Assembly (NCBI GenBank): GCA_964387675.1
Contig: CAYLWL010000004.1
Coordinates: 1 to 61,814, forward strand
Source of the DNA: an uncultured Candidatus Saccharibacteria bacterium
GTDB taxonomy: Bacteria; Patescibacteriota; Minisyncoccia; UBA6257; 2-01-FULL-56-20
Direction: 5' to 3'
Length of the DNA: 61,814 bases
Position 1 is the stretch's first letter, and every line of letters starts with the position of its first letter. The notes under the pieces are model-generated. The model had not been told where the DNA came from and searched no databases. It worked only from the letters and a program-made list of their open reading frames with translations. Made by a program: the position numbers and the translations under genes. This document shows, piece after piece, positions 4,332 through 48,358 of the stretch.

Positions 4332-5429
4332 TTACATCAAGAGTGACCTGCTCAAGCCCCTCGCGACAAACGCCTCCTTCACCCTCTTCGCCTGGGCCTC
4401 ATCGCGATAGAACGCGTAGTTCACGCTGTTTGCGACAAGCCGCTGCATTTCTGCTTCGCCCCAACCGTAGTGATTGAGAAGCGCGAAGAAATTTTGGGAA
4501 AGGGATTTCCTCATCAGCGCCGGGTCGTCGGAGATAATGCAAAGCGGCACTTCTTCTGCGAGAAGCACATCCTCGCCCGCACCATCAACACTGGCCACAA
4601 GATTAAACGGATCTCGTTCAACGCGAATTCCCCCCGCCTTCACTTGCCGAATAATCCCTGGCGCCTTCCAAAGCGGAAGCGCATGGCCAAGGCCATCAGC
4701 GCAAAGATCATAAATGCAAGTTTCTATGTTTCTCAAACAACTTGCATCGTCCCCCATCTCTCCGGCATGCGGATTGCGCCGGATTTTTGACCCGATGGTG
4801 CTCTCGAAAACCGGGGCGTAGACGTCCGGTCGATACGTGAACTCATCGCAAGCGAGGTCGAGAGAGACAACGCCTCGATCTTGCCAGCGCATTGCAAGCC
4901 GAGCGATATCATACGCGCTCCGCAATCCGTACTGCTTTTTGCACTCTCGCGCGATGCTGAGCGTAGCGTTCACTTCGACGCCCGTTTCTTTATACCCTTG
5001 CTCGAAACCCATGAGCGCGTACTTCACGGCATCGTCCAGCGACATCGGCTCGAACGGCTCCACTTCAAAGTCCTCCGGCTTGTACCACGGCGGCGGATAA
5101 ATGCTTTGATACCCAGGGGCGTCTCTCAACTCTGCAAAAAGAATGTTTTCTTCCGCAAGGTCGCAAACCTGCCGGTAAGCCGCCCAACTTCGTCCCTCTG
5201 GCGTCCGCATAAGGGCGATAGCCCAACCAAACCGCTTCAGAAGCTCGTCAATCGACATCGGTTCAACAATCTGATACAACTTGGCGAATTCCGCCGGGTC
5301 ATCGGTCGGCAATTTTACGCCAAAACGCCTGGCGGCTTTGAAGAATCTGTCGTCTTTGTTGCTCACCGCGCCGTCAAGATGCCGATGAACGTCTGCCTTC
5401 GGAAACGCGAGCATGTCGTCCAGAGTCAT
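4332..5429 (-). CDS. add: Adenosine/adenine deaminase family protein
   Basis: HRHLDG, HAGE, GHA and SDDP metal-binding motifs. Confidence 0.88.
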   Translation of the reverse strand: MTLDDMLAFPKADVHRHLDGAVSNKDDRFFKAARRFGVKLPTDDPAEFAKLYQIVEPMSIDELLKRFGWAIALMRTPEGRSWAAYRQVCDLAEENILFAELRDAPGYQSIYPPPWYKPEDFEVEPFEPMSLDDAVKYALMGFEQGYKETGVEVNATLSIARECKKQYGLRSAYDIARLAMRWQDRGVVSLDLACDEFTYRPDVYAPVFESTIGSKIRRNPHAGEMGDDASCLRNIETCIYDLCADGLGHALPLWKAPGIIRQVKAGGIRVERDPFNLVASVDGAGEDVLLAEEVPLCIISDDPALMRKSLSQNFFALLNHYGWGEAEMQRLVANSVNYAFYRDEAQAKRVKEAFVARGLSRSLLM

Positions 5430-44921: not shown

Positions 44922-45605
44922 ATGAATTCAATTCTCGACCTCATCTTCCCCTCTCTTTGCCTCAACTGCCGCAAAGGCGTGAAAGGCGGCGACGTTATCT
45001 GCGCGAGCTGTTTCTCCGCGATACCGCTCAACCAAACGCTCTTTTGCGGAACGTGCCGGGCGCGCCTCGCGGACAATAAAAAGATATGCCACAAGGACTC
45101 AAAGTTTATTCTCGGCAGTGCGGCGAATTACGATAACGATGCCGTAAAAAACCTGGTTCACGGATTGAAGTTTCGGTATTTGAGGTCAGCGGCTTCGCCC
45201 CTCGCCGAACTGCTTATCCGATACTTTATGGACCTCGGATTTTCGACGTTCAACTTTGTTGTGGTTCCCGTTCCCCTTTCGCGCGAACGGTTCCGCAAAC
45301 GGGGTTTCAACCAGTCCCTGCTCGTCGCCGAAATATTTTCCAAACATTTCGACTTGCCGATCGCCGCGGATGCCATTCTGCGAATCAAAAACACCAAGCC
45401 GCAGAGCGATACGAAAAATCTAGCGGAGCGAAGAGAAAACGTGAATGGCTGCTTCTCCGTAAAAAATCCCGAGGCGGCTTATGGCAAAAACATAATTTTA
45501 ATAGACGACGTCATCACCTCCGGCGCGACTGTATCGGAAGCGGTGTCGGCCTTAAAATCCGCCGGCGCAAAAAGAATAATAGTCCTTACGGTAACAAAGG
45601 CATAA
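44922..45605 (+). CDS. comF: Competence protein ComF
   Basis: FP..C..C zinc motifs, VPL...R...RGFNQS, LIDDV.TSGAT PRTase motif. Confidence 0.92.
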   Translation: MNSILDLIFPSLCLNCRKGVKGGDVICASCFSAIPLNQTLFCGTCRARLADNKKICHKDSKFILGSAANYDNDAVKNLVHGLKFRYLRSAASPLAELLIRYFMDLGFSTFNFVVVPVPLSRERFRKRGFNQSLLVAEIFSKHFDLPIAADAILRIKNTKPQSDTKNLAERRENVNGCFSVKNPEAAYGKNIILIDDVITSGATVSEAVSALKSAGAKRIIVLTVTKA

Positions 45606-45620
45606 ACATATAAACAAAGA

Positions 45621-45670
45621 AAAAATGTTCACATTATAAATGATTAGTCATTTATAATGTAAACATTTTT
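45621..45670. repeat. AT-rich hairpin P3 (23-bp arms, 1 mismatch)
   Basis: AAAAATGTTCACATTATAAATGA-TTAG-TCATTTATAATGTAAACATTTTT just after the comF stop. Confidence 0.85.
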
Positions 45671-45694
45671 GGGTAGGCGGAAAAAGCCGTGAAC

Positions 45695-45724
45695 TTGACT
45701 TTTTGTCGGGCACTATGCTACAAT
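45695..45724 (+). promoter_or_regulatory. Sigma70 promoter upstream of the tRNA-Leu region
   Basis: TTGACT-18nt-TACAAT with extended TG. Confidence 0.6.
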
Positions 45725-45842
45725 GATCATATATTCGAAAAACTCCTTTTCTGATTTACTCGTGAATACTTTTTCTGCCGAATAACTTTAATATTAGATT
45801 AGAAGGCCTTTCTGGTGGTAAGTTTGGTTTTACGCAACAACT

Positions 45843-45878
45843 GCCTCCGTGGCGAAACTGGAATACGCGCAGCGTTCA
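45843..45878 (+). pseudogene. tRNA-Leu 5' half (truncated in the anticodon after TTCA)
   Basis: GCCTCCG-TG-GCG-AAACTGGAATA-CGC-G-CAGCG-TTCA aligns position by position with the 5' half of the intact tRNA-Leu; no matching 3' half follows. Confidence 0.72.
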
Positions 45879-45929
45879 CCCTGTCACTAAAATTTGCGCC
45901 ATATCAATCTATACAAAGATAAAGGCTAT

Positions 45930-45984
45930 GCTGGGGTGGCGAAATTGGCAGACCTGCCTGCCGGTAGGCAGGCGCACTGGTTCA
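45930..45984 (+). pseudogene. tRNA-Leu 5' half interrupted by a 20-bp REP-like palindrome
   Basis: GCTGGGG-TG-GCG-AAATTGGCAGA-[CCTGCCTGCCGGTAGGCAGG]-CGC-A-CTGGT-TCA, then TCCCCAC. Confidence 0.7.
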
Positions 45985-46021
45985 TCCCCCACTTTTGGAA
46001 TAATATAATCAAGATATTAGG

Positions 46022-46103
46022 GGGCAGGTGGTGAAACTGGCAAACACGTACGCTTCAGGAGCGTATGCCGCGAGGCTTGAGGGTTCAAGTCCCTCCCTGC
46101 CCA
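46022..46103 (+). tRNA. tRNA-Leu(CAG)
   Basis: GGGCAGG/CCTGCCC acceptor stem, TACGC-TT CAG GA-GCGTA anticodon arm, long variable arm, GGTTCAAGTCC. Confidence 0.95.
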
Positions 46104-46136
46104 CCGAAGGAAGATCTCCCGCGGCACAAGTTAGAT

Positions 46137-46520
46137 ATGAAAACAATTTTAGTTGATGCAGTATACACATTTGTATCCGATACGGGAGTAATTTTCCAAG
46201 ATATGCTTGATTTACTGGAGAAATATCCAAACAAGAAGATAATCCTCACGAATGCAGATTACGATAAATATGAGCAATATGGTTTAAATAAGGTGCCGTA
46301 CGAAGTTTTTACTCTAAAGCATAACCCCGAAAAGACCGACCCAAAATATTACGAGAAAATGCTTGAACACTTTGGTTTAAAGAAAGATGATGTCATCTAT
46401 TTTGAACACGACGAGAACGCGGTGAAAAGTGCGCGGTCTTTGGGCATAAAAACCTATCACTACGACCCAGACAAAAAAGATATTGAGGCGCTGAAAACTT
46501 TTTTAATCGAAAACTTATAA
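46137..46520 (+). CDS. HAD-like hydrolase (short, degenerate motifs)
   Basis: ILVDAVYT, ILTNA, K.DP.YY, IYFEHD...V..A...GI; AT-rich relative to its flanks. Confidence 0.7.
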   Translation: MKTILVDAVYTFVSDTGVIFQDMLDLLEKYPNKKIILTNADYDKYEQYGLNKVPYEVFTLKHNPEKTDPKYYEKMLEHFGLKKDDVIYFEHDENAVKSARSLGIKTYHYDPDKKDIEALKTFLIENL

Positions 46521-46525
46521 ATAAT

Positions 46526-48358
46526 ATGGTCAATAAATCAGAACCTGGCCAACGGACGCAGATACGGCCGCCTTCAATTCCAAAACGCATGCCGCAAGCG
46601 CGGCCGCACCGTCCGCCTGCCGGGCGAAGAGGCCAGCAAGGCGGGCATTTTGCGCGCCCGATGGCAAGCGCGAGCCCCGCGGAAGAGTACAACGGCGTCG
46701 CGCCAGTTCGCTTTGTGCCGCTCGGCGGCCTCGAAGAAATCGGCCGCAACTGCATGTTCCTCGAATATAAAAATGAGATCGTCGTCATCGACGCCGGACT
46801 GCAATTCCCGGAAGAAGGCACGCCGGGGATAGACTTCATCATCCCGAACACAGCGTACCTCGAGCAAAAAAAACAGAACATCCACGCCCTGATCGTCACG
46901 CACGCCCACTATGACCACATCGGCGCGATCCCCTATATTATGGCGAAGCTCGGCAATCCTCCGATTTACACTTCGGCCCTCTCCGCCGCGATTATCAGAA
47001 AACGGCAGGAGGACTTTCCGAACGCGCCGAAGCTCGACATCCAAATCGTAAAGCCGCGGGATATTGTGAAGATTTCCAACAATTTCGAAGCGGAGTTCTT
47101 TATGATCGAACACACCATCCCCGACTCGCTCGGCGTGCTCATTAAAAATCCCGCCGGGAACTTTGTGAGTCTTGGCGACTTCAAAATAGAGTACGACGAA
47201 CACGGCAAGGCATATAATCTCGCCGAACTCGAGCGGATCGGCAAGATGGGCGTGCACGTGTTCGCGACGGACAGCACGAACGCGGACATCCTTGAACGGT
47301 CGCCATCGGAGAGGATCGTCGAAAAAAACCTCGAGGAGCTCTTTACGAAAGCGCAGGGGCGCATCATCGTCGCGATGTTCGCCTCCGTGATCACCCGCAT
47401 TGCCGAGGCCATTAAAATCGCGGAAAAACTCGGCAGGAAAGTTTCTCTTGCCGGCTATTCGATGAAAGCGAACGTGGAAATCGCCCGCAACCTTGGCTTC
47501 ATCAAGGCGAAGGAGGGAACGATCATTCCCAACGAAGAGGTCCATAAATACCGCGACGACAAAGTGCTTATCATTTCGACCGGAGCCCAGGGAGAATCGA
47601 ACGCGAACTTGATGAAGATTTTGACCGGCGAGCATCGGTTCCTCAAAATCAAGCAGGGTGATACGGTGGTGTTGTCGTCTTCTGTCATTCCGGGCAACGA
47701 ACGGAGCGTGCAGGCGATCAAAGACGACCTCGCGCGGCAAGGCGCCGTCATCTTCCATTCGAACATCGTGGACATCCACTCTTCCGGCCACGCGGCAAAA
47801 GACGACCTCCAGCTCGCGATGCGCCTCTTGAACCCAAAATACCTCGTGCCGGTGCACGGCTACTACTACAAGCGGTTCATCAACGCGCAAAACGGCATCG
47901 AGATCGGCATCCCGAAACAAAATATCTTTTTGATGGACAACGGCCAAGTCGCGGAATTCACCGGGGATTCTTTCCGCGTTACGAACGAAAACGTGCCCGC
48001 GTCGTATGTGATGGTGGACGGACTCGGCGTCGGCGACGTCGAAGAAGTCGTGATCCGCGACCGCCGCACGCTTGCCGCGGAAGGCATGATCGTAATCATC
48101 GTCACCGTGGATCGCGACAAGGGGAAACTGCTCAAGAGTCCCGATATCATTTCCCGCGGATTCATTTATCTCAAAGAAAGCCAGGAGATGCTCGACGAAA
48201 TCAGAAAGCGCTTGCGCGCTTTGATTTCCCGCTTGCCGACCTATCAGCCGGTGGAAGCGGATTACCTAAAAACTCTTATTCGGGATCAGATCGGCCAGTT
48301 TGTGTATACCAAAACAAAGCGCCGGCCGATGATTCTTCCTGTTATTATAGAAATATGA
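46526..48358 (+). CDS. rnj: Ribonuclease J
   Basis: PLGGLEEIGRN, THAHYDHIG, GAQGE, HSSGHA; Pro/Arg-rich N-terminal extension of about 55 aa. Confidence 0.96.
   Translation: MVNKSEPGQRTQIRPPSIPKRMPQARPHRPPAGRRGQQGGHFARPMASASPAEEYNGVAPVRFVPLGGLEEIGRNCMFLEYKNEIVVIDAGLQFPEEGTPGIDFIIPNTAYLEQKKQNIHALIVTHAHYDHIGAIPYIMAKLGNPPIYTSALSAAIIRKRQEDFPNAPKLDIQIVKPRDIVKISNNFEAEFFMIEHTIPDSLGVLIKNPAGNFVSLGDFKIEYDEHGKAYNLAELERIGKMGVHVFATDSTNADILERSPSERIVEKNLEELFTKAQGRIIVAMFASVITRIAEAIKIAEKLGRKVSLAGYSMKANVEIARNLGFIKAKEGTIIPNEEVHKYRDDKVLIISTGAQGESNANLMKILTGEHRFLKIKQGDTVVLSSSVIPGNERSVQAIKDDLARQGAVIFHSNIVDIHSSGHAAKDDLQLAMRLLNPKYLVPVHGYYYKRFINAQNGIEIGIPKQNIFLMDNGQVAEFTGDSFRVTNENVPASYVMVDGLGVGDVEEVVIRDRRTLAAEGMIVIIVTVDRDKGKLLKSPDIISRGFIYLKESQEMLDEIRKRLRALISRLPTYQPVEADYLKTLIRDQIGQFVYTKTKRRPMILPVIIEI

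Follow-up and report, generated by a model that had tools for sequence, protein, structure and literature searches.

In fungal mitochondria, mobile open reading frames (ORFs) of the GIY-YIG type, such as that of Allomyces atp6, bring part of their target gene with them, and the displaced part of the resident gene persists as a pseudogene. Archaea have split tRNA genes, as in Nanoarchaeum, and tRNA introns with bulge-helix-bulge (BHB) motifs. Phage T4 carries a free-standing GIY-YIG homing endonuclease gene, SegB, in its tRNA gene cluster (PMC2330249), and the rRNA genes of Candidate Phyla Radiation (CPR) bacteria contain insertions, some of which encode LAGLIDADG or GIY-YIG proteins (PMC11270868); the latter account never mentions tRNA (0 occurrences). 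Here we describe a tRNA-Leu locus in a 61,814-nucleotide (nt) stretch of contig CAYLWL010000004.1 from an uncultured Candidatus Saccharibacteria bacterium, the whole of which we call the window. At this locus two 5' fragments of tRNA-Leu genes (units 1 and 2) and a short orphan 3' end accompany one intact tRNA-Leu(CAG) gene (unit 3). We read the fragments as stacked relics of repeated tRNA-Leu invasion and replacement by tRNA-carrying, GIY-YIG-associated cassettes, and we put the probability of this reading at about 0.6.

Fragments and an intact gene at one locus

Three tRNA-Leu-like starts lie in register at positions 45843, 45930 and 46022, and only the third belongs to an intact tRNA-Leu(CAG). 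A repeat finder recovered the matching D-arm segments, GTGGCGAAACTGGAATAC (45849), GTGGCGAAATTGGCAGAC (45936) and GTGGTGAAACTGGCAAAC (46028), with spacings of 87 and 92 nt; the three starts at ~90-bp intervals pointed out by an initial annotation of this DNA are therefore real. The sole tRNA call at the locus was 46022-46105 (ARAGORN, tRNA-Leu(CAG); Rfam, 55.8 bits). Units 1 and 2 received no ARAGORN call and no covariance-model match in a 651-nt search, even at E<=10, an outcome that the initial annotation had said would tell against tRNA-like halves. Formally it does; however, half a tRNA has no pairs to score, so we judged covariance models uninformative for half molecules and tested units 1 and 2 by sequence homology. 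Both show significant partial homology to tRNA with no cloverleaf call, the features of tRNA fragments or pseudogenes. The units, the tails that follow the fragments, the 3' relic, the promoter and the leader all lie on the forward strand.

Unit 1 (45843-45878) comprises the acceptor strand GCCTCCG, the D arm, the 5' strand of the anticodon stem and TTCA; it has no D-loop palindrome, and its D loop reads GGAATAC, not GGCAGAC. The closest relatives by ComF sequence, P0002 (73% identity, locus L085) and P0003 (69%, locus L087), share a gene order of pilM, comF, a conserved promoter and leader, and an intact tRNA-Leu(CAG) (GCCTCCGTGGCGGAACTGGAATACGCGCGGCGTTCA/GAACGCCG...CGGAGGCA). Examination of the locus in relatives, as the initial annotation had proposed, thus uncovered a full-length gene, and unit 1 agrees with nt 1-36 of it (Sprinzl positions 1-35) at 34 of 36 positions (E 6e-11). 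It ends precisely at the A35/G36 boundary, after TTCA: the next 51 nt show no trace of the relatives' 3' half (p ~1). We regard this comparison as decisive for identifying unit 1 as the lineage's own ancestral tRNA-Leu(CAG), truncated after A35. The earlier suggestion of a decayed isoacceptor therefore holds in that unit 1 is a decayed native gene, but it carries the same anticodon as the live gene and does not represent another isoacceptor.

The promoter reported upstream of the units is real-looking. It is of the sigma-70 type (45695-45724; TTGACT, an 18-nt spacer and TG-TACAAT, a 10/12 match with a TG extension) and is conserved in both L085 and L087 (TTGACTTT...GCTACACT). It was probably the promoter of the ancestral tRNA-Leu(CAG), retained so that it now reads into unit 1. 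The putative ancestral 5' leader (45725-45842) is partly conserved with the relatives (AATAACTTTRATATTAGA). The 3' halves of units 1 and 2 were sought without success: orphan 3' halves ending in CGGAGGC or CCCCAGC, which the initial annotation had suggested looking for, occurred at chance-level counts in the window; two downstream sites of this kind fall in coding sequence and have no T arms; and a BLAST search with the relatives' tRNA returned no 3' half from the 61.8 kb. The exact 36-mer of unit 1 had no match in a metagenome scan.

Unit 3 (46022-46105) has the acceptor stem GGGCAGG/CCTGCCC, unlike that of the relatives' orthologue, and is 89% identical over 84 nt to an inner tRNA-Leu nested within another tRNA gene on an unrelated metagenome contig (L120). 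On sequence grounds, these comparisons show unit 3 to be a foreign replacement gene for the native tRNA-Leu(CAG), and it is presumably functional. Because the match of unit 1 ends at TTCA and unit 3 is foreign, we conclude that the native gene was cut off after A35 and that a foreign tRNA-Leu(CAG) took over its function. The initial annotation had also observed that the acceptor strands of the fragments differ from that of the intact gene; in the window, all three differ.

Unit 2 (45930-45984) is a tRNA-Leu 5' fragment of another kind. It reads GCTGGGG-TG-GCG-AAATTGGCAGA, a palindrome, and then CGC-A-CTGG-TTCA. The 20-nt, near-perfect palindrome (CCTGCCTGCCGGTAGGCAGG, 45953-45972, no strand assigned) sits in the D loop between GGCAGA and CGC, and without it unit 2 would be an ordinary tRNA-Leu 5' part, one stem base short. 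Unit 2 belongs to a family of such fragments, with matches at E 1e-16 to 3e-17: it is 94% identical over 52 nt to the 5' fragment of L190 (E 1e-16), including the GGTTCATCCC junction (GGTTCA/TCCC), and 98% identical over 43-45 nt to L169, L209, L112 and L110. Many groundwater contigs from the same community also match 45929-45975, with other acceptor strands and flanks. The statement that both fragments keep the acceptor 5' strand, D arm and anticodon 5' strand and stop after A35 is accurate for unit 1; for unit 2 it needs amending, since the anticodon-stem strand has 4 nt, not 5, and the 20-nt D-loop palindrome went unmentioned.

The DNA joined to each fragment resembles the ends of inserts found elsewhere. 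Tail 1 (45879-45929) is foreign DNA joined to unit 1, and its first ~15 nt (CCCTGTCACTAAA; longer form CCCTGTCACTAA) match the C-rich left inverted-repeat arm of the L146 insert (CCCCGACACCAA) at 12 of 15 positions (p 0.012); it also resembles a community contig (CACCCTGTTAGAAATTT, p 0.03). Tail 2 (45985-46021), the spacer between unit 2 and the live gene, begins with the C-rich junction TCCCCCAC and contains a lone TATAAT (46004-46009), 13 nt upstream of the intact tRNA. A TTCA/YCCC junction recurs in unit 1, L146, L190 and one community contig; for this reason the CCCCA after the TTCA of unit 2, once taken for a remnant of its acceptor 3' strand, is more likely the C-rich left end of inserted DNA.

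A further relic lies downstream of unit 3. The 13-nt orphan 3' end at 46115-46127 (TCTCCCGCGGCAC) consists of a T-stem 3' strand, the acceptor 3' strand CCGCGGC and A73. It matches the tRNA-Leu 3' ends of L138, L184, L171 and L125 at 14-15 of 15 positions, with E values of 0.03-0.13 that are individually weak; the acceptor strand of L138 and L184 is GCCGCGG, the type complementary to the relic. As neither unit 1 nor unit 2 is complementary to it, it would be the relic of a third gene, and its position directly after the inner tRNA is that of the 3' fragments in the nested loci described below. Separately, an imperfect inverted repeat (45886-45910/46129-46153; 18 of 25 positions, outer 9/9, ACTAAAATT/AATTTTAGT) encloses unit 2, unit 3 and the 3' relic, with its right arm within the start of the neighbouring HAD-like gene; at p ~0.01 it may be due to chance.

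The arrangement is not an assembly artefact, as independent contigs from two studies contain it. A 2857-nt Logan contig from one groundwater run spans 45636-46900 and a Logan contig from a different study spans 45797-46102, each with 0 differences; a variant strain that retains units 1 and 2 covers 45819-45975 with 3 differences.

The locus is flanked by a ComF-family gene (44922-45605) and by a gene for a 127-amino-acid (aa) HAD-like protein (46137-46520), followed by RNase J. The window genome has pilM/N/O, comF and trpS and is closest to uncultured Patescibacteria/Parcubacteria. The slot between the tRNA and RNase J is variable, holding an HAD-like gene in the window, a tRNA_bind gene in L087 and an Rce1-like gene in L085, and in more distant ComF relatives synteny is lost and tRNA-Arg or tRNA-Ser is found instead. 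At 62% ComF identity (L088, 6427-7962; L089 and L090), comF is followed by a zinc-ribbon-like ORF, a 156-aa ORF, tRNA-Arg(GCG) and a large serine recombinase, and tRNA-Leu is absent from the comF slot. In L085, a 16-nt direct repeat of the tRNA-Leu(CAG) 3' end (TCCTCTCGGAGGCACA, 5044-5059 and 5221-5236) surrounds an insert of ~165 nt; this resembles a scar of the att type and would record an event of another kind in that gene. Across very distant Patescibacteria the HAD-like protein keeps 70-76% identity (3856 matches, in unrelated contexts), an unusual degree of conservation given that the neighbouring ComF drops to ~48% identity across distant relatives. We considered whether the HAD-like gene had been imported together with unit 3 and rejected the idea, as its homologues are this similar phylum-wide, in unrelated contexts and without tRNA-Leu. 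An AT-rich palindrome with 23-nt arms follows comF (45621-45670); it has a terminator-like score on the minus strand, and all Logan unitigs of the window genome break within it.

Nuclease genes inside tRNA genes

We searched metagenomes for the D loop with its palindrome (AAYTGGCAGACCTGCCYGCCGGYAGGCRGG) and found the same palindrome, at the same D-loop position, in at least 120 stretches. Among the matches listed, 113 unique loci were worked on, and the counts that follow refer to these. About 63 of the 113 have an intact ORF that begins 11-35 nt past the hairpin, with a complete tRNA-Leu downstream; in most ORF-bearing loci this tRNA is free of the palindrome and begins 0-20 nt after the ORF stop. 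All five Leu anticodons are represented. The window conforms to this layout in part: units 2 and 3 present a hairpin-marked 5' fragment directly before a complete tRNA for the same amino acid, as in the ~20 of the 113 loci that have no ORF and whose full tRNA starts 45-120 nt from the start of the match (+78 in the window). With no GIY-YIG ORF between fragment and tRNA, the window is a degenerate member at best. Among viral contigs, neither unit 2 nor unit 3 nor the pattern of D loop and palindrome found a match.

The ORFs encode small GIY-YIG proteins (Pfam PF01541, E 1e-16 to 1e-18) of 77-92 aa (median, 80 aa). These share the conserved catalytic residues Y, Y-G, R, H and E and are 33-90% identical in pairwise comparisons; no NCBIfam model matched them. 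Their closest solved relatives are the UPF0213 proteins (1zg2, 1ywl) and the SLX1 nuclease domain, not the I-TevI/Seg homing enzymes. They therefore have the catalytic domain and residues of a homing endonuclease but not its separate DNA-binding domain. In L129, L182 and L185 the ORF runs into the downstream tRNA, its stop being the TAG anticodon of tRNA-Leu(TAG), and in L037 the stop is a TAA in the anticodon loop of tRNA-Ser(GCT).

A hidden Markov model of the family ORFs, which is independent of the palindrome, found similar layouts at other tRNA genes. At a tRNA-Arg(GCG) cassette (L093, 4494-4939), the fragment covers positions 1-26 and has two different GC-rich hairpins in its D loop. The fragment of a tRNA-Ser(GCT) cassette (L037, 7773-8155) has one GC-rich D-loop hairpin, and a tRNA-Lys(CTT) cassette (L175, ~1280-1990) begins with a near-whole 5' copy bearing two TCCCG...CGGGA hairpins in the T loop. 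The tRNA-Gly cassette (L205, ~1500-2100) is mirrored, with a full tRNA, the GIY-YIG ORF, and then a hairpin and a 3' fragment.

Several loci retain both ends of the interrupted gene. In L112, L120, L146, L148, L160, L190 and L201 an outer acceptor 3' strand with a T arm, complementary to the upstream 5' fragment, stands just after the inner tRNA; on this order of parts, the outer tRNA-Leu gene in each of the seven is interrupted by an insert with a second, entire tRNA-Leu inside it. The L112 insert carries a GIY-YIG ORF as well. In L146 and L190 the outer gene reads through TTCA into a C-rich arm, the inner tRNA, a complementary arm ending at CAAG, and then GGA with the anticodon-stem 3' strand and the rest of the gene. 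The arms are 13 and 15 nt long in these two loci (p<0.005) and imperfect, at 16-17 nt, in L148. Inverted repeats around the inner tRNA were significant only in L146, L190, L201 and L123, and were unconvincing in the window. A path of decay is also apparent, since L209 is orthologous to L112 and has lost the outer 3' fragment. Finally, L152 and L158 have two tandem fragment-ORF units before a single tRNA, and L121, a close relative of L152, has one; such tandems are the ORF-bearing equivalent of the window stack.

What the hairpin does is a matter for conjecture. It may be a palindrome, mobile or templated, that persists in dead copies alone; it may act as a spacer that keeps the fragment from recombining with the live gene; or it may be a substrate or mark for a nuclease of the structure-specific type. 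A perfect 20-nt palindrome, CCTGCCTGCCGGCAGGCAGG, is in addition a generic intergenic repeat in Patescibacteria contigs, REP-like (resembling repetitive extragenic palindromes) or terminator-like. It was seen in L006 (~4599-4615), L023 (4760-4777), L073 (7097-7116), L209 (7227-7249), L123 (as a tandem double) and L191, at sites that include the stretches after comF and after a ZIP transporter gene and other positions within dead tRNA copies.

In the searchable literature we found no account of GIY-YIG genes, of fragments marked by hairpins or of nested genes at the tRNA loci of Patescibacteria, and this widespread family of nuclease-gene cassettes inside tRNA genes is apparently undescribed.

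Proposed history and competing explanations

The history that we propose begins with the state seen in L085 and L087: comF, promoter, leader and one native tRNA-Leu(CAG) with the acceptor strand GCCTCCG. Foreign DNA with its own complete tRNA-Leu would have entered the anticodon loop after A35. The native 5' part would have stayed on its promoter as unit 1, the native 3' part would have been lost, and the incoming tRNA, unit 3, would have taken over decoding. If the incoming DNA, or an earlier round, already held relics of a previous host gene (unit 2 and the 46115-46127 end), this would explain why the fragments are stacked. The vehicle would be a cassette of a tRNA 5' fragment with a GC-rich D-loop hairpin, a small SLX1/YhbQ-like GIY-YIG gene and a complete tRNA. 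Its nuclease gene could be transcribed from the captured tRNA promoter, with the resident 5' fragment kept as a leader, and its complete tRNA would restore the function lost through the insertion. Spread may have occurred by nuclease-stimulated, homing-like gene conversion in which conserved tRNA sequence serves as the homology arm. Repeated rounds, followed by deletions, would then produce stacks like that of units 1 and 2 with the 3' relic; the window copy, now inert, would have lost its nuclease gene or never had one.

The size of the family, its nested genes, the recurrence of the design at other tRNAs and the independent contigs of the locus all favor this history, as do three comparisons: L085 and L087, where the site is empty, set beside the window with its relics; the unit 2 junction shared with L190, together with the likeness of the unit 1 tail to the L146 insert arm; and the difference in copy number between close relatives, one unit in L121 and two in L152. 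They support the initial annotation's idea of scars left by repeated insertion into a tRNA-Leu gene, though not as scars of an integrase. A more ambitious version, which we offer as a tentative possibility and hold to be clearly less probable than the history itself, is that selfish cassettes of a mini GIY-YIG gene (SLX1/YhbQ type) and a tRNA home into tRNA genes, hijack their promoters, replace the host tRNA and so drive horizontal tRNA replacement, with the D- or T-loop hairpin as a working part. On this same tentative footing, the invasions would leave stacks and nests of dead tRNA fragments, and the hairpin, far from junk, could be a substrate for a structure-specific nuclease, a mark of immunity or a spacer against recombination.

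Several observations weigh against the cassette history. The tails contain no significant remnant of a GIY-YIG ORF and a six-frame translation of the whole window has no match to a GIY-YIG gene, so the link to a nuclease at this locus comes only through the family membership of unit 2. The 113 loci were chosen by requiring the palindrome. The cut after TTCA, described initially as common to the fragments, does recur in unit 1, unit 2, L146, L190 and the ORF-bearing L198 and L205, but breakpoints across the family range over positions 22-45, which makes the TTCA cut the junction of a subfamily and no general rule. In 43 of 86 loci the 5' fragment and the full tRNA share an acceptor strand, which a local partial duplication would fit. 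A close homologue of the family nuclease (L227, 701-961), one of 9 matches listed in a protein word search with a family ORF, lies between a 2-hydroxyacid dehydrogenase gene and a MOFRL-family gene, with a 4-nt overlap into the latter; association with tRNA thus does not extend to every member of the protein family. Site-specific homing stays hypothetical for proteins that consist of a UPF0213/SLX1-like catalytic domain alone. The cassette history also leaves self-immunity unaccounted for, as the inner tRNA keeps any target site that a tRNA bears.

Of the other explanations, the one that we take most seriously, unlikely as we consider it, is that the fragments are kept as part of a functional leader RNA, which might help to process or stabilise the downstream tRNA or ORF, act as a regulator, or serve as a decoy for proteins that bind or cleave tRNA. 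For the decoys against anticodon nucleases proposed initially, we found no evidence. The palindrome is identical and in the same D-loop position beside ORFs only 33-90% identical, differing GC-rich hairpins occupy the D or T loop at tRNA-Arg, tRNA-Ser and tRNA-Lys, and the ORF starts 11-35 nt past the hairpin, with the CAG/TAG anticodon loop supplying AGGA(G) before some starts. The relic region is also less variable between strains than the neighbouring gene (~4/233 versus 11/253, small numbers). Yet the hairpin is identical in part because the search pattern selected for it, and a palindrome that is a generic intergenic repeat could simply insert at GGCAGA/C in dead copies; moreover, unit 1 has no hairpin and the window has no ORF for such a leader to serve. 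Fold energies are ordinary: neither the ancestral leader nor units 1 and 2 (z -0.7 to -1.5) were unusually stable. Somewhat less probable again is that a duplicated tRNA-Leu array arose locally and lost its 3' halves by ordinary deletion, with no mobile element. The 87- and 92-nt spacing is near the length of a tRNA-Leu gene, fragment and full gene share an acceptor strand in half of the family loci, and tandem units exist in L152 and L158; but no two of the three acceptor strands in the window agree, unit 3 does not resemble the orthologue in the relatives, and intact three-gene arrays with these acceptor stems are absent from all sampled relatives. Nor does duplication account for the tail of unit 1, which is unlike its own 3' half (p~1) and resembles insert ends elsewhere, for the unit 2 junction shared with an unrelated contig, or for the outer 3' fragments nested in seven loci, which indicate insertion.

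Integrase events at tRNA attachment (att) sites duplicate or displace 3' parts of the gene, not the promoter-proximal 5' parts. This is a difficulty for the tyrosine-integrase crossover invoked initially and, more broadly, for repeated integration and excision of islands or prophages through tyrosine or serine recombinase crossover in the anticodon loop, an explanation that we consider improbable. It would suit the breaks in the anticodon loop, the repeated 16-nt tRNA 3' end that flanks a 165-nt insert in L085, and the large serine recombinase near a tRNA in L088-L090. In the window, however, it is 5' parts that remain, no 3' halves of unit 1 or unit 2 occur in the 61.8 kb, and the 3' relic at 46115 has an acceptor strand of yet another type and is no direct repeat of either unit. 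There is no recombinase beside the locus, whose flanks (comF, the HAD-like gene and RNase J) are syntenic with L087; viral contigs gave no matches; and in the 113 listed loci the fragments flank only a 77-92 aa ORF or nothing. We give least credence to a split or intron-containing tRNA, in which the halves would be completed by trans-splicing or pairing, or would be exons around an intron. The 13-17 nt inverted repeats that bracket the insert in L146, L190 and L148 could join the outer halves in RNA, but they are absent from most loci and from the window, where an intact gene for the same anticodon is present, the 61.8 kb hold no 3' halves, and no Rfam intron or other family matched; in addition, the outer D loops are broken by the palindrome. 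A group I intron in tRNA-Leu was likewise considered and rejected: no Rfam intron matched, the inserts are 51 and 37 nt long, and there is no 3' exon.

Significance and comparison with known systems

If the cassette history is correct, the tRNA-like half genes of Patescibacteria are fossils of invasion, and annotating them as split tRNAs, introns or integrase sites would be mistaken. The window would then document the replacement of a single-copy tRNA gene in a reduced genome by a foreign one with synteny kept, which bears on tRNA-based phylogeny and on the evolution of tRNA identity elements in this group. Beyond the window, at least 120 loci covering all five Leu anticodons, with analogues at Arg, Ser, Lys and Gly genes, make up a candidate selfish element that would restore the function it destroys through a spare tRNA. 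The nested tRNA-in-tRNA genes and the minimal 80-aa nuclease with its conserved hairpin are tractable for biochemistry. Although itself inert, the window relic is valuable as a pointer to a widespread and apparently undescribed mode of tRNA gene invasion and replacement in Patescibacteria.

Each of the described systems shares something with this family. The att sites of integrative elements, with crossovers in the anticodon or T loop, are likewise in tRNA genes and leave partial copies behind; here, by contrast, there is no recombinase, the fragments are 5' and not 3', and the cargo is 0.1-0.4 kb. Like the split and intron-containing tRNA genes of Archaea, the genes described here are broken in or near the anticodon loop, with complementary flanks in a few nested loci, but they are bacterial, an intact gene is present, and the outer genes look dead. 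The rRNA insertions of CPR bacteria are found in the same phylum-level group and also target genes for stable RNAs, and those that encode GIY-YIG proteins are not recognisable introns (PMC11270868). They differ in the way function is kept: rRNA insertions are removed from the transcript (PMC11270868), whereas here a second, complete gene copy would serve.

The nearest of the described systems are SegB and the mobile ORFs of fungal mitochondria. SegB (PMC2330249) and this family both place a GIY-YIG gene among or next to tRNA genes, as a selfish ORF without an intron, and co-inheritance with the flanking tRNA by break-induced gene conversion would be common to both. SegB-type enzymes have a DNA-binding domain and lie between intact genes, whereas the proteins of this family are bare catalytic domains of 77-92 aa of the UPF0213/SLX1 type. 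Unlike SegB, the family ORF sits inside the tRNA gene, would use the tRNA promoter and leaves a hairpin-marked 5' fragment followed by a replacement tRNA, with cleavage by the encoded protein being putative. The mobile ORFs of fungal mitochondria resemble these cassettes in outcome: the invader supplies a segment that keeps the target functional, and the resident segment is left beside it as a fossil. Those ORFs, however, target protein genes and displace the 3' end, whereas the cassettes described here target tRNA genes, displace mostly the 5' part, and can nest one whole gene within another.

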